This document shows positions 11,863 through 25,578 of a stretch of 25,764 nt of DNA, piece by piece. The notes beneath the pieces are model-generated. The model did no database searches and was not told the origin of the DNA. It was given only the letters and a program-made list of their open reading frames with translations. Numbering within the stretch: position 1 is the first letter of the stretch; each line of letters starts with the position of its first letter. Origin of the DNA: a virus. The translations under genes were made by a program, and so were the position numbers. The stretch lies in UHGV virus genome UHGV-0116607; one strand, written 5' to 3'.

Positions 11863-12787
11863 ACTACAGCAGAATGCAAAAACAGAGCTTAACGCGGCTC
11901 TGACGCAGGGGCTTGACGACCTCAGTCGCTTTCAGGTGGTTACGTTTACGAAGTATATCCGTAAGGTTCTCCCGCTTGATGGCTTCGTGTTCTGGGTGAA
12001 AGCCTCCGTCCTGTCTGATAACCCGGGCAACGAACCCGACACGGTAAACGTCAAAGGCTACCTTCATCTGACGACAGAAACCATCCAGGACGATGAACAA
12101 CTCTACGACCGAAACGTCGTTACGTTTACTGCGCAGGCCGATATAGACCCATTCAACGATATTGGATCGGACGTCCTGTACATCGGCGAGTTTTTTGGCA
12201 TTCAGTTTTCTTTCTCCCGTCGAACCGGACTGAACGAACCGGCCAATCTTTATCACTACACAGGGGAGGCGATCTATCCGCATATGCGGTCGCAGATTAT
12301 CAACTCTGCGGATGATATCGACCTGAGTGACGTTGTGGTTTCCAGTTCGTTGCCTGTATGGCTTGGGCTTAGTCAGTTTATGCCAATGTTTCCGGCGATG
12401 CTTTCCACGCAGAACCTGTCGCCTCCCTTCGCGACAATACGGTGCAGCAATGTCTCTCCGATCGCCGGGGCGTTTTATATCGATGAACGCGACAACCAGT
12501 ACCAGCTGGTTTCCGAGGATGTGACGATTTCGATTACAGGCCTCAGGAATGCCGTGGTTGAGGACTTTCTGCGATACGTTCAGCAGTACACCCTGCGCGA
12601 TGATGCAGAAATGGGCGTAATGAACATCCCCGTTGTGCAGGATGAGCGCGTTACGCAGAACGAACTGAACGTTATCGCCATGCGCAAGACCATCAAATTC
12701 AAAGTCAATTATTACCAGCAGCGGATGCGCAACGTAGCCCGCGGGCTGATCCTGTCTGCAATTCCGTCCATTTATCCGGAGAAATAA
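11846..12787 (+). CDS. Structural protein of unknown function (neck / sheath-proximal)
   Basis: 313 aa; overlaps the upstream gene by 17 nt; immediately precedes the sheath gene. Confidence 0.35.
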   Translation: MPSLSELQQNAKTELNAALTQGLDDLSRFQVVTFTKYIRKVLPLDGFVFWVKASVLSDNPGNEPDTVNVKGYLHLTTETIQDDEQLYDRNVVTFTAQADIDPFNDIGSDVLYIGEFFGIQFSFSRRTGLNEPANLYHYTGEAIYPHMRSQIINSADDIDLSDVVVSSSLPVWLGLSQFMPMFPAMLSTQNLSPPFATIRCSNVSPIAGAFYIDERDNQYQLVSEDVTISITGLRNAVVEDFLRYVQQYTLRDDAEMGVMNIPVVQDERVTQNELNVIAMRKTIKFKVNYYQQRMRNVARGLILSAIPSIYPEK

Positions 12788-12791
12788 TTAA

Positions 12792-14186
12792 ATGGCAATT
12801 GTTAACATTAACGTATCGGTGACCAATCCGCCGAAGCCCTCGCAGCTGCTTAAATCCGGCGCGATGATCTCCATGGGCGGGACGACTCTGGCGGCAGGCG
12901 AATATCAGTTGCTTACGTCAAAAGACGATCTGAAAGCTATCACCGCCCCGGGGAAAACGATATCAACCATTGTCTGGGCGGCCAATCTGGTCACTGTTAC
13001 CCTCGCATCGCCTCATGGCTGGACGAATGGCAGCACCGTGCCTGTTGTGATTTCTGGCGTGGCACCTGCGGCATACAACCGCTCTGCTGAGGCGACGGTT
13101 ACCAGCGCGACGGAATTTACTTATTCGCTGAGCAGCGACCCGGGGACGGCAACCACCATGGGCGTTGTTAAGACGGTTGTTGCTGGTGAAATTATCCAGA
13201 TGAACACCACGTACTGGGCGCAGGGTGCAGCTCGCGCGGTCTATGTGCTGGAACTTGGTGACATCACCATCCCGGCAGCCGTGGCAGCTCTGAGTGATTT
13301 TATCGACAAGGATATTTCCCTCGGCAACACGTACCAGAAATTCTTTTCGTATCTGGTACCTCGTGAGTGGGATTCTGAAGCGACTTTCAAAACGCTCACG
13401 GGTCAGTACACATCCCCCGGATCGCTGGTTTATTTCTTTGTCACAAGCACGATTGCCACCTATCAGTCATGGGTGACAACAAAGAATAAAACCGTATTTG
13501 CAGGGGTCGAAGCTCCGAATATTCCAGCTACTGAATTTTCGATGGCGGCAGCGTTCCAGTCCTCGCTGTCAAATGACCCCGGTTCGTCGAACATGGTACC
13601 GCCGATGGCGTTCCGCTTCATGTATGGGGTGACTGAATACCCGGTTGAGAACAACGGTACGTTGCTGAAAACGCTCCAGGAAAACCACGTCAACTACATC
13701 GGGTCATCTGCAGAAGGCGGCCTGAGCAACAAGATGCTGGTAGCCGGCCACATGCTTGACGGTAATCCGTTTAACTACTGGTATGCAGTAGCATGGGCCG
13801 CTATTAACCTTGAACTGGACCTGGCTAACGAAGTGATCAACGGGTCTAACACCACAACCAACCCACTGTATTACGACCAGAACGGTATTGACCGCCTGCA
13901 AAACCGCGCACTGAAAACGCTGCGTAATGGAATTAGCTATGGGCTGATTCTGGGCCGCGTTATCGGTACAAAACTTATTCAGTCCGATTTCAACACCGAA
14001 TACGAGAAAGGTTCTTACGCGGGTAATGCTGTTATCAACGCAGTGCCTTTTGCTAACTATTCCAGCCTGAATCCTTCGGATTACAAGGAGGGTAAGTACA
14101 ACGGGCTAGGTGCTGTTATCACGCCGCGCCGTGGCTTCGAGTCCATCACGTTTAACCTGAACGTTACCAATTTTGTAGGGGCATAA
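12792..14186 (+). CDS. Tail sheath protein (putative) with N-terminal Ig-like insertion
   Basis: 464 aa; followed directly by a 145-aa tube-like gene, chaperone pair and tape measure (canonical contractile-tail order); carries the shared …ISGVAPAAYN…FTY… domain. Confidence 0.5.
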   Translation: MAIVNINVSVTNPPKPSQLLKSGAMISMGGTTLAAGEYQLLTSKDDLKAITAPGKTISTIVWAANLVTVTLASPHGWTNGSTVPVVISGVAPAAYNRSAEATVTSATEFTYSLSSDPGTATTMGVVKTVVAGEIIQMNTTYWAQGAARAVYVLELGDITIPAAVAALSDFIDKDISLGNTYQKFFSYLVPREWDSEATFKTLTGQYTSPGSLVYFFVTSTIATYQSWVTTKNKTVFAGVEAPNIPATEFSMAAAFQSSLSNDPGSSNMVPPMAFRFMYGVTEYPVENNGTLLKTLQENHVNYIGSSAEGGLSNKMLVAGHMLDGNPFNYWYAVAWAAINLELDLANEVINGSNTTTNPLYYDQNGIDRLQNRALKTLRNGISYGLILGRVIGTKLIQSDFNTEYEKGSYAGNAVINAVPFANYSSLNPSDYKEGKYNGLGAVITPRRGFESITFNLNVTNFVGA

Positions 14187-14187
14187 C

Positions 14188-14625
14188 ATGGCAAACCCAT
14201 TAGTACCACAAGGATTCCTCAACCGCGTCCGTGGCGCGGTTTCCATCACTGATGTTCCGGCTCTGAATGTTACTGCATCTTATCTTGGTAAAGACGGGAT
14301 CAGCATGCGTCCGGACGGTCCCGCCACGGACATTCTGCCGACCATGACCGGCACCGTTGGCAGTCAGGTACCGTATCAGCAGGTTACCTTAACCGTCCAC
14401 ATGCTGCGCACTCAGGGTCTTGCCGCAAGCTATCAACAGCGCTTTACGACGGACACAGCGCTTGGCGAGGTGGTTGTTACCCCGGACGCAACCACATTTG
14501 GCAACTTCACCCTGCTTAACTGCTACCTGGTCAACTTTAACGAGATGCCATTTAACGGTATGGATGCCGGGTACGTGGTAACCATCAGCGGCTACCTCAT
14601 CACTAACGACAACATGTGGATCTGA
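14188..14625 (+). CDS. Tail tube protein (putative)
   Basis: 145 aa; position immediately after the sheath gene; size typical of contractile-tail tube proteins. Confidence 0.5.
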   Translation: MANPLVPQGFLNRVRGAVSITDVPALNVTASYLGKDGISMRPDGPATDILPTMTGTVGSQVPYQQVTLTVHMLRTQGLAASYQQRFTTDTALGEVVVTPDATTFGNFTLLNCYLVNFNEMPFNGMDAGYVVTISGYLITNDNMWI

Positions 14626-15203
14626 CCGTGAAAATCGATAAAAAACTAAATCTGGTCTGTTCGATCAGCCGTGATGACGGTGCTCTCATTTATGTTCACA
14701 CCTCACCTTTTCCCTATGAGGTGGTGGAAGAGCATTGCCTGATGCTCGGTAGCCTGTTTACCAGTTTCATTGCTCAGGTTGGTGGTCTTGGCGCGGCCCG
14801 GGTAGCGGCAATGATGCTTCGGAAGAAAATTAAAAAGGAACAGGAGGTAACCGGGCAGGATGGCCCAAACATTGTTGATGAAATCCAGCGCCAGACAACA
14901 GTCATTTTTAATGACAACGGTCAGTGGAAATCTGTGCCGTTAGATTCTGCGATGAAACAGGGCATTATTTCCGCTGACGAGTTTCGTGAGGTGGAAGGTG
15001 AAATCGTTTTTTTTATGGTTTCCTCTGCCATTCAGAAACCGGAACTCATCAAGCCAACGGTGGGGAGCGTGCTCGGTATGTTCGGTGGTCAGTTAACGTT
15101 ATCGACCGCTACGGAGTGGCGAGGTTCTTTACTGACGTCGAAAACGGATACCGATACCCCGAACCAGACTGCCCCGCAGGAAACGTCGTTTATACCCTCC
15201 TAG
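14616..15203 (+). CDS. Tail assembly chaperone (putative, G-like)
   Basis: 195 aa; located between the tube and tape measure genes; overlapped at its 3' end by a -1 frame ORF. Confidence 0.4.
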   Translation: MDLTVKIDKKLNLVCSISRDDGALIYVHTSPFPYEVVEEHCLMLGSLFTSFIAQVGGLGAARVAAMMLRKKIKKEQEVTGQDGPNIVDEIQRQTTVIFNDNGQWKSVPLDSAMKQGIISADEFREVEGEIVFFMVSSAIQKPELIKPTVGSVLGMFGGQLTLSTATEWRGSLLTSKTDTDTPNQTAPQETSFIPS

Positions 15204-15337
15204 ACTGGGCCTCTAACGAGGGGTTCAGGGACGTTGTAAGGGAAATAGCTGGCGAGGAATACGCCAGCCCATCCCAGTTCAGGCAGCGCTTTATCCTCTC
15301 CGCCTTAAAAGAAAGGGGTCATTTCAATGGCAGCTAA
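15116..15337 (+). CDS. -1 frame ORF overlapping the chaperone 3' end (possible frameshift extension, G-T-like)
   Basis: 73-aa ORF in the -1 frame relative to 14616-15203, ending at the tape measure start; arrangement matches the conserved chaperone frameshift locus, but no canonical X XXY YYZ slippery heptamer was found in the overlap. Confidence 0.3.
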   Translation: MARFFTDVENGYRYPEPDCPAGNVVYTLLDWASNEGFRDVVREIAGEEYASPSQFRQRFILSALKERGHFNGS

Positions 15338-17153
15338 ATCCATTATTGAAGTTGATGTAAATGACGAAAAGTTCTTGTCATTTATGGAAAAATTCAACGA
15401 ATACCAGGCTGCTCTTGAAGATCTTCCCGAAGCATGGCGGGCATCTGCGCAGGGTATTGGCGACACCGCCCGCGAAACGTCAAAAGCATCCTCAGAAGCT
15501 GAGGGGGTGACAAAGGCTTTTTTGGATGGCGTTGATGCTTTGAATATGATGGTGAATAACCTCGATCGCATCAACACCAGCCTTGACGATGCCAATAAGC
15601 GTCAGAGTGACCTGAATAAGAAAACTGCTGGCTCTTCCAGCATATTTGGCAAACTTAAAAAGGACTCAAAAGAGTTCGCCGGCCATATCAAAGACGCCAC
15701 AGTCAGCCTGCTGTCATGGGGCGGTATTGTAGGGTTGTTTACTGGTGTTCTCGGCGCTGGTGGGTTGTTCGGACTGAACCGCCTAGCATCCACCGCGAGC
15801 GCCCAGCGATTCACCTCTATGGGGTTGAATACCTCGATTGGTGCCCTGGATTCAACGGCCATTAACTACCAGCGTGCAGTGTCCAACCCAACCGCGACAC
15901 TGGGTGCCATTCGTGACACTCAGGCCGATTTATCCCAGCGCTGGAAATTCCAGGCTATGGGCATCAATAACCCTGACCGCTCCCCGGACCAGTTGCTGCC
16001 GGAGATGATTCGTGCCGCCAGGAGTATTTTCACGCAAACCGGCGGCACGTTGCAGGGGGCTAACGCCTACGGGTTGACCAGCTTCTTCAGTATTGATGAC
16101 CTCAATCGCTTTAAAAATATGAGCGATGCCGAGATCGACGCTATGGAGAAACGTGCGAAGCGTGACGCTCAGTTGCTGCAGATCACTGATGAGCAGGCCC
16201 GGCAATGGCAGGATTTCAATATTCAACTCGACTACAGCAGTCAGAGCATCAAAAACACGTTCATCCGTGGACTTGGCCCGCTTACCCCTGGACTGACAAA
16301 ACTCTCTGATGCGTTGTCTGGTGCTATCGATACCGTTATTCAATCTCCAGAACTTGGAAAATGGATCGACGGGCTCGCTGGTGGTATTCAGCGATTTGGT
16401 GATTACCTGGCCTCTCCCGACTTTAAAAATGATGTCGAAAACTTCATGGTAAAAGTCGAGAAGCTTGGAAAAGTAATTGGGAAGGTTGTCGACTGGATTA
16501 TTGGTAAAACAGACACCACAGGAATTATTGATGGTGTTAAATCAGAATCGACAATTCTTAATGCAAATCCAGTGACAGACCCTAAGACAGGAAAAACGTA
16601 TACACCTGGTAGCGAGGATGACCCGCATGTTTGGGGGTGGCTAAAAGGGGTAAAGCGATTCTTTTCTGGCGGAGACATTGCTCCTGTTGATCCTCTGCCA
16701 GCTAATGTCAACGCTAAAGGTCGCACGATTGCCGATCGGTTCAACAACCCCGGAAATCTGAGGTGGGCGGAAGGCTACGAGACTAGCAACACCAAAAGTG
16801 GGAAGTTCGCCGTATTTCCAACACTTGATGAAGGCGTTCTGGCGGCAACAAAGCAACTCCAGATATACGGCCAGCGCGGGACAAACACTGTAAGGGACAT
16901 CGTCAGTAAATGGGCTCCATCAAATGAAAACAACACGGAGGAGTATATCCGGCACGTTGTTCGCTCGACCAAATTTAATGAGAACGAAAAACTCAATCTG
17001 AACGATCCCTATGTGCTGGCGAAGTTAATTTCTGCAATAGCCTCAAAAGAAGGGGCAGGAAGCCGAGTTACAGAGGACCGGGTTATTCAGATTTACAACA
17101 ACACGGGGGGTAACGCGATTGTTACCGGATCACAGTTGGGGGCTATGGGATAA
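15327..17153 (+). CDS. Tail tape measure protein with C-terminal globular domain
   Basis: 608 aa; helical, Ala/Leu-rich N-terminal half; Gly-rich hydrophobic segment LSWGGIVGLFTGVLGAGGLFGLN; position after the chaperone pair; C-terminal about 170 aa (…FNNPGNLRWAEGYETSNTKSGKFAVFP…) looks like a separate folded domain. Confidence 0.6.
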   Translation: MAAKSIIEVDVNDEKFLSFMEKFNEYQAALEDLPEAWRASAQGIGDTARETSKASSEAEGVTKAFLDGVDALNMMVNNLDRINTSLDDANKRQSDLNKKTAGSSSIFGKLKKDSKEFAGHIKDATVSLLSWGGIVGLFTGVLGAGGLFGLNRLASTASAQRFTSMGLNTSIGALDSTAINYQRAVSNPTATLGAIRDTQADLSQRWKFQAMGINNPDRSPDQLLPEMIRAARSIFTQTGGTLQGANAYGLTSFFSIDDLNRFKNMSDAEIDAMEKRAKRDAQLLQITDEQARQWQDFNIQLDYSSQSIKNTFIRGLGPLTPGLTKLSDALSGAIDTVIQSPELGKWIDGLAGGIQRFGDYLASPDFKNDVENFMVKVEKLGKVIGKVVDWIIGKTDTTGIIDGVKSESTILNANPVTDPKTGKTYTPGSEDDPHVWGWLKGVKRFFSGGDIAPVDPLPANVNAKGRTIADRFNNPGNLRWAEGYETSNTKSGKFAVFPTLDEGVLAATKQLQIYGQRGTNTVRDIVSKWAPSNENNTEEYIRHVVRSTKFNENEKLNLNDPYVLAKLISAIASKEGAGSRVTEDRVIQIYNNTGGNAIVTGSQLGAMG

Positions 17154-17863
17154 TGGGGTTCACTCGTGAGATGTACAAGCTGGGGTTTGAAATATCCCCG
17201 GTTATCCTTTGTGACGGCATTGCCCAGGCAATACCAGGTGGCATGCTTCCGATCGTTGCCCTGACCCAAAGCGCCAGTTTTGTAACTGGTCTTTTGGGTG
17301 GCGCAATTAACCTCACCGATCTGGATAAATATTTTTGCCACTGGAAACCAGTTCAGGGCTCAACGCTTATTGATTACGACATTGCCCGCTACCCTTTTGC
17401 TAACCAGGTCGTGGCCGCCAATGCGTTACTGGCTCAACCTTTGCGCGTATCCCTGATTATGGAAGCGCCGGTGAATGAGAATACCGGAGCAATGACTAAG
17501 TTAGTAACGATCAGCGCACTACAGTCAGTTCTCCAGGCCCATGCCAGTCTCGGTGGAACATTCATCGTTGCCACACCGTCAGTTATCTATAACCGATGCA
17601 TATTGCGCACCGTGAAGGACATCACAGGCGGCAACGATGCGTTACCGCAACGGACGTGGATGTGGGACTTCGAACAGCCGCTGATTACCTTAACTGGTGC
17701 GGAGAAGGCAGTTAATAACTTCCTGAATAAGATTGGCGCTGGAGACGTGGTAACCGAGCCAGCATGGACAAACACGGTCAATGCTCTGGGCAACACCTCT
17801 CTTGGTGGTTCTGTTTCAGAGGCTATAACGGGCCTTCTTGGCAAACTTGGAATAGGCGCATGA
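17153..17863 (+). CDS. Baseplate/tail protein of unknown function
   Basis: 236 aa; start overlaps the tape measure stop (TAATG); position. Confidence 0.4.
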   Translation: MGFTREMYKLGFEISPVILCDGIAQAIPGGMLPIVALTQSASFVTGLLGGAINLTDLDKYFCHWKPVQGSTLIDYDIARYPFANQVVAANALLAQPLRVSLIMEAPVNENTGAMTKLVTISALQSVLQAHASLGGTFIVATPSVIYNRCILRTVKDITGGNDALPQRTWMWDFEQPLITLTGAEKAVNNFLNKIGAGDVVTEPAWTNTVNALGNTSLGGSVSEAITGLLGKLGIGA

Positions 17864-18135
17864 CAACTCAATATTTCCCATTCTCAGGTAATGAGCGTCA
17901 AAGCATAGCTTTTACGCCTGTTCTTGATGGTGCAGTTTATAACTGCCAGATTAAATGGAATATTGCCGCTCAGCGCTGGTATTTGTTTATTACTGATAAT
18001 TCAGAAAATGCAATTATTAACACAGCCTTGGTCGGATCGCCTGCCGCTGGTGGTATTAATCTCATCTCTGGTGTATTCAGATTCACAACTATGTACTGGC
18101 GGGAAAAGAACGGGCAAATTGAGGTAATAAGTTAA
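17860..18135 (+). CDS. Small baseplate-associated protein (hypothetical)
   Basis: 91 aa from ATG 17860 (ATGA overlap); AT-rich; the ORF track's 17764 start would overlap the upstream gene. Confidence 0.35.
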   Translation: MTTQYFPFSGNERQSIAFTPVLDGAVYNCQIKWNIAAQRWYLFITDNSENAIINTALVGSPAAGGINLISGVFRFTTMYWREKNGQIEVIS

Positions 18136-19154
18136 TGCGTTATTACGATATACAGATTTTCGATCCGTCAAAAGACGGAAAATCTGATGTGTTATTGAAG
18201 CAATATAGCAGCCACAAAAATGGAGCTTATAATCCCGGCGCATTAATGATTGAGTTTGACATTCTCAGGTTTGGTGAATCAACCCCACAGGGTGAAACGC
18301 ACCTGACTATATGGGGTATTGGACCGAAAGAAATGCAGCAGGCCAGACAGGACCTTTTCGGTAAAAGAATAAAAATCTTTCTCGGTATGAAGCAAGGTCT
18401 ACCACTAGCTGGGAACTTCAAAGCGCCAGGACTGGTGCTTGATGGTACGATTAATCAGGTTTTTGGTAACTGGCAGGGTACGGATTTAAGGCTGGATTTT
18501 GTGATTGTAACTGGTCCAGTAACGTTAAACCCTGATGAGAAACCAGCACCACTGCCGTTAACGTTTGACTGGAAAGTTGGGCAAAAATTATCTGTCGCCT
18601 TAACTAACTGCTTCCAGTTGATAGGCGGTTATACATTTAATATTAATATTAGTGATCGGCTGGTTCTTAATCATTACAGAGGGCTGTTTTGTCGCGATAT
18701 AGTTTCTCTGGCAAAGGACCTTAATGCCTTTTCTCGCTCATGGATTAAGGACTCAGGTTACACTGGTGTTGAAATGGCCATAGTTAACGGCAATCAAATT
18801 CGAGTCTGGGATAATGATGTCAATTACCATCCTGAAGGTTCAGAAGTTACAAGTATAACCGAGTTGAATTTTACTGATTTAATCGGTCAGCCGACATGGG
18901 TAGCCTTTAAAACCATTAGCCTGATGTGTGTTATGCGCAGTGATATTCAGGTTGGTGACCATATAAGCATGCCTAAAAAAACCGCCCCAGTAATAAGAGC
19001 CTCTTCATATTCTCAGTATCGGGATGATTCCGCTTTTACAGGTGAGTTTGTTGTTAGTTCAGTGCGTCTTATTGGTAATAGTCGGCAGCCAACTGCCGAT
19101 GCATGGGTAACAATTATTGAGGCATATCCATTTGTTAAGGCTGGTGGTAAATGA
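18135..19154 (+). CDS. Baseplate hub-like protein (hypothetical)
   Basis: 339 aa; TAATG overlap with the upstream gene; AT-rich relative to neighbours; located just upstream of the spike gene. Confidence 0.35.
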   Translation: MRYYDIQIFDPSKDGKSDVLLKQYSSHKNGAYNPGALMIEFDILRFGESTPQGETHLTIWGIGPKEMQQARQDLFGKRIKIFLGMKQGLPLAGNFKAPGLVLDGTINQVFGNWQGTDLRLDFVIVTGPVTLNPDEKPAPLPLTFDWKVGQKLSVALTNCFQLIGGYTFNINISDRLVLNHYRGLFCRDIVSLAKDLNAFSRSWIKDSGYTGVEMAIVNGNQIRVWDNDVNYHPEGSEVTSITELNFTDLIGQPTWVAFKTISLMCVMRSDIQVGDHISMPKKTAPVIRASSYSQYRDDSAFTGEFVVSSVRLIGNSRQPTADAWVTIIEAYPFVKAGGK

Positions 19155-19867
19155 GTATCGATCAAAAGCTTAATTTCGGCAGCAGCATGAATCGTTTTGC
19201 TGAAATAAAGGTCGAAGATGCCCTGCAAAAGGCGGGTAAGGTGCTTCCGGCCAGCGTGGTCAAACAGGACGGAAACATGATCACGGTGGCCTTTGAGTTG
19301 CGCGATATCCCTTATGTGCTTCCTCAGGTCACCGTTCCGTTATTTGGTCCGCAGTATATCCGCTATCCCATGCAGCCAGGCGACAAAGGCATTGTTATCC
19401 CGGCAGATACCTACCTTGGTGGTGTTAGCGGGCAGGGTGGCGGCATTGCTGACCTGACGCCGCCGGCGAACCTTAGCGCGCTGGTATTTTTGCCAATCAG
19501 TAATACAGAGTGGGAAGGCGTCGACGGTCAGGTTGTGACCATTTACGGGCCCGAAGGTGTCACCATTCGGGATGCTGGCAGCAACACAACGTTTTTACTT
19601 ACTCCTGACAGCATAACCATCGCCACTCCAACGCAGTTCAAAGTGACCGTAGGGTCAACAGTTTTCACACTTACGGACGGTATGTGGAATCTGACTGGTC
19701 AGGCAGGGAAGTTGCAGGACGGAACAGCCAGCACAAGCCCGGCGATCATGCACGAGGGCTGGAAGTCGCTTGTTTCCTGGTGCAACAGCCATGTTCACTC
19801 CAACGGAAACGGCGGCAGCAATACCGGGAACGCGACAATGCAATTTAACGGGAATATCACTGAATGA
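19151..19867 (+). CDS. Baseplate central spike protein (gpV-like, putative)
   Basis: 238 aa; ATGA overlap; Gly-rich beta-type sequence; C-terminal HVH motif (NSHVHSNGNGG) resembling metal-binding HxH spike tips; followed by W-, J- and I-like genes. Confidence 0.45.
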   Translation: MSIDQKLNFGSSMNRFAEIKVEDALQKAGKVLPASVVKQDGNMITVAFELRDIPYVLPQVTVPLFGPQYIRYPMQPGDKGIVIPADTYLGGVSGQGGGIADLTPPANLSALVFLPISNTEWEGVDGQVVTIYGPEGVTIRDAGSNTTFLLTPDSITIATPTQFKVTVGSTVFTLTDGMWNLTGQAGKLQDGTASTSPAIMHEGWKSLVSWCNSHVHSNGNGGSNTGNATMQFNGNITE

Positions 19868-20196
19868 GAACCTACGGCAGGAATTCAGATGGTAAGTGGA
19901 CTCTGGTCGAAACAGATGAGAATGGATTCAACGACGCGGTTTACCTGACTACTCTGGTGCAAAATCTTAAGCTTGCGCCGCAGGAGTCTCCGTTCTTCGC
20001 GAACAATGGTATTCCGGCTAACGGATCAGTAATACAGCAGGTATTGCCGACGTATTACGTTAACCGTCTGCAACAACAATTTAGTCCCTACTTTTCATCG
20101 CTACAAATTGCTTTGGTTAGTGATGATCCACCTGTTTATAACATTTCGGCGATAACCAACGCCGGTTCTAAAATTATCACAACGGTGAACGTATGA
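19864..20196 (+). CDS. Small baseplate wedge protein (gpW / gp25-like, putative)
   Basis: 110 aa; ATGA overlap; size and position between spike and J-like genes. Confidence 0.4.
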   Translation: MRTYGRNSDGKWTLVETDENGFNDAVYLTTLVQNLKLAPQESPFFANNGIPANGSVIQQVLPTYYVNRLQQQFSPYFSSLQIALVSDDPPVYNISAITNAGSKIITTVNV

Positions 20197-21611
20197 GTGA
20201 TTTGTCCGTTAGCTATGACGCAGCCGGGCCAGTGCCGAAAACATCCGAAGAGCTGCGCGCCGACTTAGTTTCAAGAGCCACAGAATTATCACCAGGCATC
20301 ACTACGGACCTCCCCGGATCACTTATCGAGGATATCGTCGGTACCGATGTTGGCGCGCTACTCATTGCCGATCAGATTCGTGTCGACCTCATCAACTCCG
20401 TAGGCCCGCTGAAAGCCAATATGTACATGCTGAACCTTCTGGCCCAGCAGTCAGGTATCAGCGAACAAAAAACTCAGGGGGCGACAACTGTACCTGTCGT
20501 GTTTGAGGGCCCGGTCGGCTTCGTAGTGTCACAGGGGTTTCTGGTCAGCGATGGCACGTATACCTACCAGATCGCCGATGCGACAGTGGTGCTGTCTTCC
20601 GGTGTCAGTTCGATGGTAACAGCCATTGCAACAAACACTGGTTCGTGGGCTGTACCGGTAGGATCGGTTAATCAGATACTGACCAGCCTGCCGTCTGGCA
20701 TTACTCTGACCTGCACCAACCCGGTTGCTGGCACCCCAGGTGGTGCGCCTGAAACTAACTTCGAATTTCGCGAGCGCGTCTGGGAAGCTCAGATGTCGAC
20801 TGTTCAGGGATATCCAGGCTTTATCCGCCAGAAATTGACAGACCTGAGTAATGTCCAGGCTCGTCTGGTTTCCGTTGTTCAGAGCGGTAATGCCTGGATT
20901 GTTATGTGTGGCGGCGGCGATATCTATGAGATGGCCGGGGCCATTTATAAGTCAGCCGGCGACATCAGCAGGCTAAAAGGGACTGACCTGAACGTCACCG
21001 GGATCACCAATGCGAACCCAGGAGTAGTAACGACCGACATCACGCACGGATTCAGCTCTGGCCAGGTAATTAATATCGCAGGTGTTACCGGCATGAGCGG
21101 GATTAATAACGTCCCTCTCACTATAACCGTGTTAAGTCCACATACTTTCTCAATAGGCATCAATACCACCTCGTCAGGCGCATGGACTGGTGGTGGAATA
21201 GTTACGCCGAACCTGAGGAATAATGTGGTTACGGTCAACGACTGGCCAGATAACTACCTGATACCGTTTGTTATACCATTTCAGCAACTGGTGACTATCA
21301 AGTTTCAGTGGGCAACCGAAAGCGCGAACTACCTGACAGACGCGACAATAGCCTCTCTGGTGACGCAACCGGTAATCAATTATGTAAACGGGATATTCGC
21401 AGGAAAGCCGATGAATATAAATAACGTCAAAGATGTCTTTCTTCAGGCGATTAACAGCACGCTCGATATGAGCCTGATTTCGACACTGAACGTTATTGTT
21501 ACGGTGAATGGTGTAATCACAGGAGTGGATGCCGGAACTAACATTATCAGCGGCGACCCTTACAGTTACTGGTTCATTGCCTCTGACGGGGTTATCGTGG
21601 ACGGGATATAA
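20193..21611 (+). CDS. Baseplate J-like protein with Ig-like insertion (putative)
   Basis: 472 aa; ATGA overlap; position in V-W-J-I order; contains the shared …HGFSSGQVINIAGVTGMSGINN…TFSIG… domain. Confidence 0.45.
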   Translation: MSDLSVSYDAAGPVPKTSEELRADLVSRATELSPGITTDLPGSLIEDIVGTDVGALLIADQIRVDLINSVGPLKANMYMLNLLAQQSGISEQKTQGATTVPVVFEGPVGFVVSQGFLVSDGTYTYQIADATVVLSSGVSSMVTAIATNTGSWAVPVGSVNQILTSLPSGITLTCTNPVAGTPGGAPETNFEFRERVWEAQMSTVQGYPGFIRQKLTDLSNVQARLVSVVQSGNAWIVMCGGGDIYEMAGAIYKSAGDISRLKGTDLNVTGITNANPGVVTTDITHGFSSGQVINIAGVTGMSGINNVPLTITVLSPHTFSIGINTTSSGAWTGGGIVTPNLRNNVVTVNDWPDNYLIPFVIPFQQLVTIKFQWATESANYLTDATIASLVTQPVINYVNGIFAGKPMNINNVKDVFLQAINSTLDMSLISTLNVIVTVNGVITGVDAGTNIISGDPYSYWFIASDGVIVDGI

Positions 21612-21612
21612 T

Positions 21613-22317
21613 ATGCTTGAAGATATCATTAAGTCTTACTTGTATACGCAGTATAACGACGATGATGATCTCCAGGCGTTCGTCACTGCGTATAACTCCA
21701 TGGCCCAGGAAATTTATTCATGGATGATTAACGCCAACCTTCCGATATTTGTCGGAGGGTATAATGCTGGTGACCAGTTAAAATGGATTGCCCGCGGGAT
21801 TTATGGCGTTAAGCCGCCGGTGCTGGTCAGTGGGAAGCGAACCGTTTACGGCCCTTACAACGCCGTCCTGTTCAACCAGTTACCATTCAATGGCAGAAAG
21901 GTAGTTAATCAGTCAGAGCAGGTTGTCGTTTCAGATGATCTTTTTAAGCGCATCATGACGTGGAATTTCTACAAAGGTGATGGGTATTACTTTACCATCC
22001 CATGGTTAAAGCGTCGGATAATGAGATTTCTTACCGGGGTTGATGGCGTTGACGTCGTTAACGATCAGAGGTGGAGTATTTCGGTTCTTTTTTCTGATTC
22101 TGGAGCGAGCATATCGATCATCAAAGGGTACAGGAAACTCACCGATGCCTCCATGTTCAATAACTTTTCCTACAATTCACAGACGCTTAATCAGAAGAAA
22201 AGCCTTCTGATAAAAAGTACGAACTACGAATATGCATCATTGTTCAAACAGGCCTTTGATAGCGGCCTGCTTCATATGCCATTTTATCAGCCTGTTACCG
22301 TAACCATTATCGGCTAG
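21613..22317 (+). CDS. Baseplate / tail-fibre-proximal protein (gpI-like, putative)
   Basis: About 234 aa from ATG 21613 (one nt after the upstream TAA); the ORF track's longer 21529 start would overlap the J-like gene by 83 nt. Confidence 0.4.
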   Translation: MLEDIIKSYLYTQYNDDDDLQAFVTAYNSMAQEIYSWMINANLPIFVGGYNAGDQLKWIARGIYGVKPPVLVSGKRTVYGPYNAVLFNQLPFNGRKVVNQSEQVVVSDDLFKRIMTWNFYKGDGYYFTIPWLKRRIMRFLTGVDGVDVVNDQRWSISVLFSDSGASISIIKGYRKLTDASMFNNFSYNSQTLNQKKSLLIKSTNYEYASLFKQAFDSGLLHMPFYQPVTVTIIG

Positions 22318-22642: not shown

Positions 22643-23593
22643 ATGGCACTCACACTTTTAGCTGCCAACAATGCGCAGACTGTGCTGGCGGCAGGAATTA
22701 GCGCATCAGCAACTTCTTTGACTGTTAACTCAGGAACCGGATCACTGTTTCCTGCGCCATCAGACGGAGTAAGTTTTTTTAAGTTAACCCTGATTGATGC
22801 GGCAACCGGGCAACTCACCGAAATCATGCATGTAACCGCGCGCACTGGTGACACCATGACGATCGAACGCGGCCAGGAGGGAACGACAGCCCGCGCATGG
22901 TCAGCGAATGATATCGCAGCAAACATGATGACCGCCGGCACTCTTAACTACATCCTGGACAATTTTCAACCCTTAGATGCAACCCTAACGGCATTGGCTG
23001 GGCTGGCAACCGGTGCAAATAAACTCCCGTATTTCACTGGAACTGATACAGCTGCGCAGACTGATTTAACTTCTGTTGGCCGTGACATTATTGGGAAAAA
23101 TACTATTGCTGACATTCTCACATACCTTGGTTTGGGAGAAGGTTCGGCATTACCCGTTGGTGTGCCTGTCCCGTGGCCTTCCGCCACTCCGCCAACAGGC
23201 TGGCTGAAATGCAACGGGGCTGCTTTTTCGGCTGAAGAATACCCGGAACTGGCAAAGGCTTACCCGACAAATAAATTGCCTGATTTACGCGGTGAATTTA
23301 TTCGTGGCTGGGATGACGGACGTGGTGTGGATGCCGGGCGACAATTATTATCTTCACAGGGGGATGCAATAAGAAATATTGAGGGATTCGCAGATGGCGG
23401 GATCGGCATGTCTTTTGATGCAATCAGAGGGGCTTTTTACGATGCAGGAACACGATCAGCGACAATGGCGAATAACACAACTGCTATAGGCAAAACCGAT
23501 GACCTTGGATTCGACGCCTCTCGTGTCGTGCCAACAGCTAATGAAAACCGTCCACGTAACATCGCCTTTAATTATATTGTGAGGGCTGCATAA
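22643..23593 (+). CDS. Tail fibre protein (constant N-terminal part + invertible C-terminal variable part with tail-collar-like domain)
   Basis: 316 aa; GGAGGA ribosome-binding site; C-terminal region has the tail-fibre collar signature (…GWLKCNGAAFSAEEYPELAKAYP…LPDLRGEFIRGWDDGRG…); a hix/gix-like recombination site lies within the coding sequence at 23115-23140. Confidence 0.8.
   Translation: MALTLLAANNAQTVLAAGISASATSLTVNSGTGSLFPAPSDGVSFFKLTLIDAATGQLTEIMHVTARTGDTMTIERGQEGTTARAWSANDIAANMMTAGTLNYILDNFQPLDATLTALAGLATGANKLPYFTGTDTAAQTDLTSVGRDIIGKNTIADILTYLGLGEGSALPVGVPVPWPSATPPTGWLKCNGAAFSAEEYPELAKAYPTNKLPDLRGEFIRGWDDGRGVDAGRQLLSSQGDAIRNIEGFADGGIGMSFDAIRGAFYDAGTRSATMANNTTAIGKTDDLGFDASRVVPTANENRPRNIAFNYIVRAA
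23115..23140. repeat. Left recombination site (hix/gix-like 26-bp site) inside the tail fibre gene
   Basis: TTCTCACATACC-TT-GGTTTGGGAGAA: two 12-bp half-sites around a 2-bp core; 15 bp (23127-23141) is a perfect inverted copy of 24944-24958. Confidence 0.6.
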
Positions 23594-24186
23594 TGAAACC
23601 TGTTTTTGATGAAAATGGGCTGGCTACAGTACCGGGTAATATGCGTTGTTTTTATTATGAGGCAGTTACGTATGAATATACTGGCTGGTCTGATGAATAT
23701 ATTAATACTGGCGTAAGTATGCCCGCCTGTTCCACTGGTATTGACCCGGGCGAATACATTCCGGGAAGAGTGGCAGTATTTACGGGTAAGGGATGGAGCC
23801 ATGAAGAAGACCATCGCAATGAGACTGTTTACTCAACAGAAAATGGCGTAGCTGTTACAGTGGATTATATCGGTGCCATCAAAGACGGTTATGTCACGCT
23901 TTCACCGTTAACGCCATACGATAAATGGGATGGTGAGAAATGGGTGACGGATACCGAGGCACAGCATAGCGCCGCACTAGACGCGGCAGAAGTAAAGCGC
24001 CAGTCGCTGATTGATGCTGCAATGGCTTCCATCAGTCTGATTCAGCTGAAATTACGGGCCGGGCGGAAGCTGACGCAGGCAGAAACCACCCGACTTAACG
24101 CTGTGCTGGATTACATTGACGCGGTGGAGGCAACAGATACCAGCCCCGCGCCTGATGTCATCTGGCCTGAACTGCCGGAGGCGTAG
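23593..24186 (+). CDS. Tail fibre assembly protein (U-like)
   Basis: 197 aa; TAATG overlap with the fibre gene stop; C-terminus …LDYIDAVEATDTSPAPDVIWPELPEA matches the conserved tail-fibre-assembly C-terminal signature. Confidence 0.75.
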   Translation: MKPVFDENGLATVPGNMRCFYYEAVTYEYTGWSDEYINTGVSMPACSTGIDPGEYIPGRVAVFTGKGWSHEEDHRNETVYSTENGVAVTVDYIGAIKDGYVTLSPLTPYDKWDGEKWVTDTEAQHSAALDAAEVKRQSLIDAAMASISLIQLKLRAGRKLTQAETTRLNAVLDYIDAVEATDTSPAPDVIWPELPEA

Positions 24187-24597
24187 GCCATTCAATATCT
24201 GGCGCACTGGAAGTATCGACCAGTTCCAGTGCGCCAGATAATCCAGCCACAAATTATATTGCACCAGTTCCTCACCTTTCAGGCGACCAATCGCCGCTTT
24301 ACCAGGCCATTGCTTACTGTTTATGTATTCGTTGACCTGATTAATCAATTGCTGCTTTTTCAGTTCGGCTGCGGCAATTTGTTCCTCATGAGTTGGCGGT
24401 GGAATATCAATCCATGCAGGCATTCCGTCGATGACACCTCTGTATTTTCCTTCTGGTGCTTCCTTCATAAATTCGGCGGCAACAGTGTCGTCAATTTCGA
24501 TTCCATCATCGGGCCATTCGCCGGATTCCTGATAAGCGATTTTAAGCTCCACAGGGAAAAACGCATTTTTATCGGCACTGAAAATATATTTCTGCAT
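24052..24597 (-). CDS. Alternative tail fibre assembly protein (U'-like); apparent frameshift near the 3' end (possibly a pseudogene or homopolymer sequencing error)
   Basis: ATG at 24597; as read the frame runs to 24052, but the conserved C-terminal signature LELVDTSSAPDIEWPTPP is encoded in a different frame (encoded at about + 24180-24225, stop near 24160); a single missing G/C at about 24234-24235 would restore a product of about 145 aa. Confidence 0.5.
   Translation of the reverse strand: MQKYIFSADKNAFFPVELKIAYQESGEWPDDGIEIDDTVAAEFMKEAPEGKYRGVIDGMPAWIDIPPPTHEEQIAAAELKKQQLINQVNEYINSKQWPGKAAIGRLKGEELVQYNLWLDYLAHWNWSILPVRQILNGLRLRQFRPDDIRRGAGICCLHRVNVIQHSVKSGGFCLRQLPPGP
24196..24240. repeat. 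17-bp perfect inverted repeat with 11-bp spacer at the convergence point of the two tail fibre assembly genes
   Basis: TATCTGGCGCACTGGAA (24196-24212) … TTCCAGTGCGCCAGATA (24224-24240); lies just downstream of the U-like stop and inside the 3' coding region of the minus-strand U'-like gene. Confidence 0.7.
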
Positions 24598-24599
24598 TT

Positions 24600-24958
24600 C
24601 TACCGTCCTATCGAAATATAACTGAATCTGTATTGCTGTGAGATATCACTGGTTGCCACACGCCACGCTGAATTACTGATATGTTCAAAATTTACAGACA
24701 AAACCTGCGGGGCAGGACTCGACGGGTCTGACTGAACGGCATCAGACATAACACTGACTGAAACCATCGGCTGATTAGGGAATGGTATAGGGAAGTGTCC
24801 ACTGATAAAGCGGGTCGTGTTTCCTGAAAAAGTGCCAAACTGAACAATATATCCACCTGGTAGCCTGAACCATCCCGAACCAGAAGCGAATGCTCCCATA
24901 TCCGGTATCTGATTATCTCCTGTGCCCACATCCCTTTTCGCCGCTTCTCCCAAACCAA
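24600..24958 (-). CDS. Promoterless alternative tail fibre C-terminal cassette (S'v-like), expressed only after inversion
   Basis: Minus-strand ORF in frame with the fibre constant region across the recombination site (…GLGE|AAKRDVGTGDNQIPDMGAFASGSGWFRLPGG…); stop 2 nt before the U'-like ATG; no start codon or ribosome-binding site of its own. Confidence 0.6.
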
Positions 24959-24970
24959 CCTTTTTTATAA
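24945..24970. repeat. Right recombination site (hix/gix-like 26-bp site) upstream of the invertase gene
   Basis: TTCTCCCAAACC-AA-CCTTTTTTATAA; from memory closely resembles the hixL-type consensus; inverted relative to the left site. Confidence 0.6.
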
Positions 24971-25000
24971 CCATCAAAAATCTGGTGATGCTTCGCCGTT

Positions 25001-25023
25001 TCTCCTGTTTTCATAACAGGAGA
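25001..25023 (+). promoter_or_regulatory. Hairpin / palindrome covering the invertase ribosome-binding site
   Basis: TCTCCTGTT (25001-25009), loop TTCAT, AACAGGAGA (25015-25023); the 3' arm contains the Shine-Dalgarno AGGAGA, 7 nt upstream of the ATG. Confidence 0.4.
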
Positions 25024-25029
25024 AATCCC

Positions 25030-25578
25030 ATGATTTACGGTTATGCCCGAGTATCAACAAACCACCAGGACACTGAATTGCAACTAACGGCGCTCAAGTC
25101 AGCGGGTTGTGAGAAAATTTTTGAAGAGCATGCCAGCGGGAGGAAATCGAATCGGCCGGTTCTAAAACGGCTGATCGCCACTATGCAGCCGGGGGATGAA
25201 CTGGTGGTCTGGAAGCTGGACAGGATAGGCCGCAACGTTCTGCATGCGCTGTTGATGTTCCAGCAGTTACAGGAAAAGGGTATCAACTTCCGCAGTATTA
25301 CCGATGGCGTGGATCTCAAAACAGCCAGCGGCCGCTATAACTTTCGTAACATCCTTTCCGCAGCACAATATGAATCTGATCTTAATAGCGAACGTACCTT
25401 AGCAGGGCTGGCCGTAGCCAGGGCAAAAGGGCGAGTTGGTGGTCGCAGGCCTAAGTTCACGGATGAGCAATGGCGGGAAATGGGGGAGCGGATGGCAACC
25501 GGTGAATCACGACAAAGCGTATCAAAAACGTATGGAGTAGGGCTCTCAACTCTGTATAAAAAGTTTCCAGCTAGCTGA
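25030..25578 (+). CDS. Site-specific DNA invertase, serine recombinase (Hin/Gin/Pin/Cin family)
   Basis: 182 aa; N-terminus MIYGYARVSTNHQD with the catalytic Ser in the resolvase/invertase motif; C-terminal helix-turn-helix (…SVSKTYGVGLSTLYKKF); adjacent to the invertible segment. Confidence 0.9.
   Translation: MIYGYARVSTNHQDTELQLTALKSAGCEKIFEEHASGRKSNRPVLKRLIATMQPGDELVVWKLDRIGRNVLHALLMFQQLQEKGINFRSITDGVDLKTASGRYNFRNILSAAQYESDLNSERTLAGLAVARAKGRVGGRRPKFTDEQWREMGERMATGESRQSVSKTYGVGLSTLYKKFPAS

Follow-up and report, generated by a model that had tools for sequence, protein, structure and literature searches.

The gene of interest belongs to a phage or prophage structural region, a stretch of 25,764 nucleotides from the UHGV virus genome UHGV-0116607 (hereafter the window). 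Terminase, portal and capsid genes are present in this stretch, and the tail can be classified as contractile because a tail sheath gene is encoded. The genes that bear on the tail are the following:

12792-14186, plus strand: tail sheath gene (phrog_205 tail sheath, E 8.7e-47)
15327-17153: tape-measure-like protein of 608 residues with a lytic transglycosylase module (PHROGs)
directly after the tape measure: 236-residue protein in the tube-initiator position, named by gene position only
17860-18135, plus strand: baseplate plug resembling Pam3 gp18 (PF22479 at E 9e-5, just under its cut-off; phrog_8737 from residue 33)
18135-19154, plus strand: baseplate hub gene, 339 residues, immediately upstream of the spike gene (phrog_196 baseplate hub, E 3.6e-35)
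19151-19867, plus strand: central tail spike (puncturing protein) gene, 238 residues (open reading frame, AlphaFold2 model, structural matches and family-profile homology)
19864-20196, plus strand: 110-residue protein in the sheath-initiator position (as Pam3 gp21, P2 gpW and Mu gp46), named by position only
20193-21611, plus strand: baseplate wedge protein (Baseplate_J-like), 472 residues (Baseplate_J match)
21529-22317: 262-residue open reading frame after the wedge gene, with its true start probably near 21610 (about residue 28), as judged from profile matches and phage homologues
23593-24186, plus strand: fibre chaperone in the putative invertible segment
24052-24597, minus strand: alternative chaperone
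24600-24977, minus strand: alternative fibre C-terminal fragment
24922-25578: serine DNA invertase gene (Resolvase and HTH_7; phrog_125, E 2e-75)

The resulting order, namely sheath, tape measure, tube-initiator position, plug, hub, spike, sheath-initiator position, wedge and, after the 262-residue protein, fibre and chaperone genes, is the same as that of Mu gp44-gp48. Moreover, it corresponds gene for gene to the cyanophage Pam3, where gp16 is the tape measure, gp17 the tube initiator, gp18 the plug, gp19 the hub, gp20 the spike, gp21 the sheath initiator, gp22/23 the wedge and gp24 the fibre (PMC9942802). The complete 'minimal myophage' baseplate order is common to positions 15327-22317 and to positions 12095-19135 of Pam3 (ON014755), with most of the proteins devoid of detectable pairwise similarity, which means that the minimal baseplate gene order of this cyanophage is also carried by an enterobacterial temperate phage. 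BLASTP found no similarity between the 110-residue protein and Pam3 gp21 or between the 236-residue protein and Pam3 gp17, and the assignments of both proteins are therefore based on gene position.

The spike gene is tied to its neighbours on either side. An ATGA at 19151-19154 contains both the stop codon of the upstream hub gene and the spike start codon, and a second ATGA at 19864-19867 contains both the spike stop codon and the start codon of the downstream 110-residue gene, by which the spike gene is coupled to each of them. Such tight coupling is usual in phage structural operons. Two of the listed frames, those opening at 17764 and 21529, probably start too far upstream: in the plug frame, listed from 17764, homologues and profile match alike set in at residue 33, whose ATG at 17860 overlaps the 236-residue gene at its stop codon. 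The plug homologue Chronis gp16 measures 279 nt, and PGAP uses the name 'phage baseplate plug family protein'.

Several further features of the module were observed alongside. Residues ~456-586 of the 608-residue protein match PHROGs families of endolysins and tail injection transglycosylases (phrog_873 at E 6e-35; phrog_7182), which suggests that this protein may deliver a cell-wall-degrading activity through the tail. The wedge protein carries at residues 275-338 an insertion matching the FCCH domain of ubiquitin-activating enzyme E1 (PF16190, E 1.3e-14, above cut-off), after which PGAP names the E. coli wedge homologues, so that their baseplate role is hidden. Downstream, 23127-25578 looks like an invertible host-range switch of the Mu G-segment or P1 C-segment type, as one copy of a perfect 15-bp inverted repeat (TTGGTTTGGGAGAAG, 23127-23141) falls within the tail-fibre gene (22643-23593) and the other, its complement (24944-24958), at the beginning of the serine DNA invertase gene. 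Besides the fibre chaperone, the alternative chaperone and the alternative fibre fragment of the minus strand are also located on this segment.

Fold and homology of the 238-residue protein

The closest phages by amino acid identity of the spike are Klebsiella phage vB_Kpn_Chronis (81%), Yersinia vB_YenM (76-77%) and Pantoea phage PdC23 (62%), and the same spike family is found in many prophages of Citrobacter, Klebsiella, Enterobacter, Escherichia, Salmonella and Yersinia. In E. coli, related prophages with an identity high enough for megablast are rare, occurring in 6 of 5426 complete genomes. The PdC23 homologue is annotated as 'puncturing protein', the homologues in all other relatives as 'hypothetical'.

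An AlphaFold2 model of the 238-residue protein, built on an alignment of 130 diverse family members, reached a mean pLDDT of 87 and comprises, in this order, an N-terminal helix (residues 9-27), a beta-barrel, short strands (137-195), a second helix (197-213) and a C-terminal coil. Confidence is moderate in the region of the second helix, before the HxH motif (pLDDT ~60-82), and low in the last 12 residues. Projected onto the gene, the domains are, all on the plus strand:

19175-19231: predicted N-terminal alpha-helix, residues 9-27 (DSSP on models)
19241-19495: OB-type beta-barrel domain with strands between ~31 and 115, the most conserved part of the family
19559-19735: short beta strands, residues 137-195, expected to form the intertwined beta-helical shaft of the trimer (AlphaFold2 model; paired with the gpV and gp138 beta-helix in the profile alignment)
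19739-19789: predicted alpha-helix, residues 197-213 (PAIMHEGWKSLVSWCNS; two models from different alignments, ungapped heptad)
19790-19798: HxH motif (H214-V215-H216), putative metal-cage ligands, equivalent to H197/H199 of P2 gpV
19799-19828: Gly/Asn-rich turn SNGNGGSNTG, closed by the conserved T-G (T225-G226) and corresponding to PGDSGGTTG in P2 gpV and RGDSGGTTG in Mu gp45
19829-19864: clade-specific C-terminal extension of 12 residues (NATMQFNGNITE) with a conserved [FY]-x-G-x-I, absent from the P2 and Mu spikes

When the 130-sequence model was compared with the PDB by Foldseek, all top matches were spikes, with E217 gp43 at 1e-6 and SN Orf41, Bas63, Pam3 gp20, the R2 pyocin spike and P2 gpV among the others. 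The values of the structure-match table are:

Pa193 gp44: 11.7
Pam3 gp20: 9.9 (second-best structural match)
Bas63 gp021: 9.2
PhiTE: 8.9
A-1(L): 7.6
a CIS Vgr protein: 7.6
P2 gpV: 7.6
R2 pyocin: 7.5
phi92 gp138: 7.4
Mu gp45: 7.3
P1 gp5: 6.7

By fold similarity to solved spikes, the protein therefore shows the combination that defines the spike class, namely an OB-type barrel followed by beta strands that would form a trimeric beta-helix. Sequence homology to characterised spikes was detectable at the level of the family profile, which retrieved P2 gpV (E 3e-4), phi92 gp138 (5e-4) and the Pa193, E217 and SN spikes (~1e-3) from the PDB sequences, with Mu gp45 reaching an E of only 0.058. In the printed profile alignments, the HxH motif was paired with the HxH of P2 gpV, gp86 and phi92 gp138, and hhalign aligned the family profile to SN Orf41 from the OB domain through the HxH (probability 89%, E 2e-6). 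On the contrary, the single 238-residue protein had no match in Pfam, PHROGs, NCBIfam or the PDB sequences, megablast of the spike region against the phage collection gave none either, and a profile of close relatives retrieved only noise from the PDB (ribosomal L6, VP40). Profile comparisons made pairwise with P2 gpV and with Mu gp45 gave no significant score, the probability for gpV being below 1%, though the HxH motifs were paired in the gpV alignment. A link of the protein to known spikes thus needs the family profile or the fold.

Since fold, family-profile homology to solved spikes and contractile-tail gene order agree, the spike assignment, which a preliminary description had proposed from the letters and open reading frames, is secure; the gene lies between the hub gene and the sheath-initiator and wedge genes, in a module that includes the sheath. 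A function is thereby given to a family of the Chronis-, vB_YenM- and PdC23-like phages that has the status of 'hypothetical protein' in RefSeq/PGAP, Pfam, PHROGs and NCBIfam.

The HxH motif and its conservation

The protein encoded at 19151-19867 ends in ...SWCNSHVHSNGNGGSNTGNATMQFNGNITE, also written ...GWKSLVSWCNSHVHSNGNGGSNTGNATMQFNGNITE, and its translation runs to ...LVSWCNSHVHSNGNGGSNTGNATMQFNGNITE before the stop codon at 19865-19867. The HxH consists of H214 (cat, 19790-19792), V215 (19793-19795) and H216 (cac, 19796-19798), which places H214 25 residues and H216 23 residues from the C-terminus; the interval 19780-19867 opens on the third codon base of W210 and closes with the stop codon. 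The HVH triplet that had been noted in a Gly/Asn-rich tip is accordingly present at this site, with the Gly/Asn-rich tail following it. The whole protein contains three histidines (201, 214 and 216), all within its last 38 residues, and a single cysteine (C211).

Taken alone, one HxH arising from three histidines is only mildly unlikely (~2-3% by our own estimate), and it is its conservation that places the motif far beyond chance. A search of 5.8 billion proteins showed WxNxHxHxNGNxG in 120 of 120 close homologues, in which both histidines are invariant and the residue between them varies freely (E/V/A/Q/L/K/R/T/D). Over the last 100 residues of an alignment that covers 34-95% identity, no residue other than H214 and H216 is invariant. 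When 1.84 billion cluster representatives were searched exhaustively with HMMER, 658 relatives of the spike protein were retrieved, and the motif was counted in the best 150 of these 658, which represent clusters at 50% identity. An HxH within the last 45 residues occurs in 101 of the 150, compared with a chance expectation of 0.7% per protein from the His content of the family, and only 2 HxH are found in the remaining 28,453 residues. The motif lies at a median of 18 residues from the C-terminus (range 13-29) and is embedded in the consensus G-D-V-T-A-G-G-[VI]-S-L-x-T-H-x-H-s-G-V-q-t-G-g-g-x-T-G-p-P; in the 130-sequence family alignment, histidine occupies the H214 column in 109 and the H216 column in 102 sequences.

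The position of this motif has a well-characterised precedent. In the Apex domain of P2 gpV, a buried Fe ion is enclosed by an octahedral cage built from three copies of HxH (H197/H199), and an HxH near the C-terminus of a spike has been put forward as the mark of an Fe-binding Apex domain that dispenses with a separate PAAR-type tip protein (10.1101/2023.02.25.529910; PMC12407873). The expectation that several phages bind metal at the spike apex through His-x-His is hence backed by the Fe cage of P2 gpV (10.1101/2023.02.25.529910); the apexes of Mu gp45 and phi92 gp138 bind iron as well. The Pfam model of this domain (PF18946, 'GpV Apex motif') matches 28 of 130 family members, with a best E of 4.2e-9, and finds neither the 238-residue protein nor its C-terminal 53 residues, even at E values up to 10. 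A dedicated apex HMM was built from 93 other family members, with 8 sequences that have a helix-type lead-in, as recognised by a crude filter, left out. It scored 13.5 bits for the 238-residue protein, 14.1 for P2 gpV and 13.5 for Mu gp45, and the best of 200 shuffles of the 238-residue protein reached 2.6 bits. Residues 212-226 (NSHVHSNGNGGSN-TG) were placed on the columns of P2 LHTHKHPG-DSGG-TTG, such that H214 and H216 fall in the columns of H197 and H199 and the T-G columns are shared, at the cost of a one-residue deletion. Likewise, T225-G226 occupies the columns of the family T/S-G in the 130-sequence alignment; compared with gpV, gp45 and the consensus of the family, the spacing from HxH to T-G deviates by 1-2 residues. 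A bridging sequence, P0134, joins a lead-in of the type found in the window (WWNALYSWLSTHEH) to a classical continuation (SGVTAGGANTGYP).

The published rule, the alignment with P2 H197/H199 and the conservation thus uphold the reading of the HxH as a spike apex motif. It marks the apex, known for metal binding, at the tip of the central spike, which is a correct yet ordinary annotation; metal binding by the 238-residue spike itself, and the nature of the metal, are deduced by analogy.

Deviating tips were observed within the same family. In 7 of the 150 representatives (P0140, P0151, P0154, P0175, P0219, P0225 and P0247), H-x-T-[TS] replaces the HxH in an otherwise classical apex (e.g. LKTHLTTGV...GGxxSGPP), an arrangement that would leave only three histidines per trimer for a metal. 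Moreover, about 28% of the representatives, including P0159, P0174, P0182, P0236 and P0237 as well as P0166, P0186, P0213 and P0227, keep the N-terminal spike domains and end in unrelated, recurring, His-free C-termini (...TGTFTTPTGQTVTVQDGIIVNIF or ...LWNDLGTVKV), a few of them being much longer, up to 1238 residues. As these unrelated C-termini recur, the spike tip looks like an exchangeable module, and from the ~28% of representatives without HxH and the 7 with HxT it follows that the cage is not obligatory for this spike family.

The predicted helical lead-in and the proposed tip architecture

The segment preceding the motif departs from the solved apexes, in which the lead-in to the HxH is beta-structured. 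The 14 residues before the HxH contain neither Gly nor Pro and are predicted to be helical, as part of helix 197-213, which appears in the 130-sequence model and also in a model from a clade-only alignment; the latter is poor overall (pLDDT 55) and served only as independent confirmation of this helix. Along the helix, M200, W204, L207 and C/L211 form an a/d heptad with an ungapped 4-3-4-3 spacing in which H214 is the next d position, and hydrophobic residues are kept at these sites in 12 diverged members (M/L/I at 200, W/F/L at 204, L/F/M/V at 207 and L/F/C/A/V/I at 211). In a parallel three-stranded coiled coil, the a and d side chains point to the axis, and histidines at such core positions constitute the His3 metal sites of designed three-stranded coiled coils (Pecoraro-type designs). 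The conserved heptad with H214 at d therefore lends specific, if indirect, support to a location of H214 on the threefold axis. C211 (19781-19783) falls on a core (a) position of the predicted coiled coil, one turn before H214; among the 120 close homologues, residue 211 is Cys in 24 and Leu in 96, and in a trimer three Cys211 would adjoin the His cage.

The open reading frame at 19151-19867 is best explained, with a probability of roughly 0.8, as the trimeric central spike of a simple contractile tail of the Pam3/Mu type, the phage being temperate, enterobacterial and a member of the Chronis / vB_YenM / PdC23 group. On this explanation, the C-terminal 42 residues of the spike form an Apex domain with a putative His6 metal cage. 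The trimer geometry described here is derived from homology and from the heptad analysis. Upon trimerisation, the N-terminal helices and OB domains would dock in the hub, and the strands would wind into an intertwined beta-helix. Helices 197-213 would then associate into a short parallel three-helix coiled coil that takes the place of the usual strands before the HxH, with H214 as the last core layer. Each of the three chains would contribute its H214 and H216 to a site on the threefold axis, where the six histidines (His6) would surround a single metal ion octahedrally (Fe by analogy with P2 gpV), while the Gly/Asn turn that ends in T225-G226 and the 12-residue tail would wrap the cage into a narrow cone. 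During sheath contraction, this rigid tip would lead the tube through the outer membrane, and, by analogy with P2, the cage would stabilise a folded, narrow and rigid tip instead of having a chemical role.

Readings of the motif differ as to the contribution of the metal to this process. P2 lacking the Apex, or carrying Phe in place of the cage, infects like the wild type, and only an unfolded AA mutant shows an approximately twofold loss of EOP (10.1101/2023.02.25.529910). As the P2 apex and its His cage are dispensable for laboratory infection, 'metal-dependent piercing' would overstate present knowledge. The same observations, together with the many family members that have no HxH at all, favour the view that the HxH of the central spike acts mainly as a chain-registration or folding clamp, as proposed for HxH in tail fibres and tailspikes, without a specific role in penetration and with the sharpness of the tip, not the metal, being what matters. 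This view is compatible with the cage model, given that the metal would still be bound and the difference is one of emphasis; the extreme conservation of both histidines around a free middle residue argues, however, for selection on the cage itself, and a clamp as the main function is on balance unlikely, albeit of appreciable weight.

Far less credit can be given to a spike that is capped by a separate PAAR-like protein, with the HxH buried at the interface, or that ends in a disordered C-terminal tail, so that the HxH would not be the actual tip. The 12-residue extension after T-G, which gpV and gp45 lack, and the low model confidence in this extension speak for such an arrangement, yet no open reading frame of the tail module matches PAAR or any tip family, and spikes with a C-terminal HxH occur without a tip protein in the published analysis (PMC12407873). 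With the HxH present and a tip-protein gene absent from the module, a PAAR-capped spike was judged highly improbable. Lower still is the probability that the protein is not a spike but another trimeric protein of fibre-like or enzymatic nature, whose HxH would belong to a fibre iron site or to a catalytic HxHxD metal site. HxH iron sites do line many phage fibres (PMC12407873), and HxHxD is found in some family members (P0127, P0153), but the fold, the place of the gene in the module and the small number of residues that follow the motif rule out both the enzyme-type site and the fibre iron site.

Within the preferred reading of a metal-caged spike apex, a further proposal concerns the clade to which the protein belongs, which accounts for about 10% of those family clusters that bear an HxH and is distinguished by its helix-type lead-in. 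The apex of this clade might be a hybrid in which a short parallel three-helix coiled coil ends in the His6-cage core layer, formed by the first His, and is followed by a packed-back [FY]-x-G-x-I tail. No solved spike shows such a hybrid, which would connect the 'metal-free helical tip' of Pam3 with the beta-structured Fe apex, making the two tips versions of a single module in evolution; the odds of this proposal are put slightly below even. The gain beyond annotation is otherwise small, inasmuch as the HxH apex and its diagnostic use are already published and the P2 cage is dispensable in the laboratory, and the predicted helix-plus-HxH tip variant is the sole, mildly new point.

Comparison with characterised spikes

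The named spikes differ from the 238-residue protein chiefly at the tip. P2 gpV (PDB 3AQJ, 3QR7, 3QR8), to which pairwise sequence similarity is absent, lacks the N-terminal helix and has strands where a helix is predicted before the HxH; the distance from HxH to T-G is 12 residues in gpV and 13 in the 238-residue protein, which in addition bears the extra 12-residue tail. In Mu gp45 (PDB 3VTO, 3VTN, 9KI1), a helix before the HxH is likewise not expected. The Pbunavirus spikes of Pseudomonas phages, SN Orf41 (4RU3), E217 gp43 (8EON) and Pa193 gp44 (9B45), share ~16% identity with the protein and are set apart by a strand-like VVNGVNVNNHGH before the HxH and by a different tail after it.

In T4 gp5 and VgrG, on the other hand, a C-terminal HxH is missing and a separate PAAR tip protein caps the spike (gp5.4 in T4, PAAR with VgrG), whereas the protein studied here has an HxH and its module no PAAR-like gene, which separates it from the PAAR-capped class. 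The N-terminal helix has counterparts in the spikes of Pam3 and A-1(L), where it contacts the hub and the tape measure (PMC9942802, PMC10966104). Pam3 gp20 (PDB 7YFZ), for its part, is described as a distinct spike with a metal-free helical tip (PMC9942802). It carries two C-terminal helices in a distal bundle and no HxH, in contrast to the one predicted helix that runs straight into the HxH in the 238-residue protein, which is accordingly not of the gp20 type. Because gp20 ends in a distal helical bundle without HxH and the 238-residue protein combines a predicted helix with HxH, the latter looks intermediate between the Pam3 tip and the classical apex.
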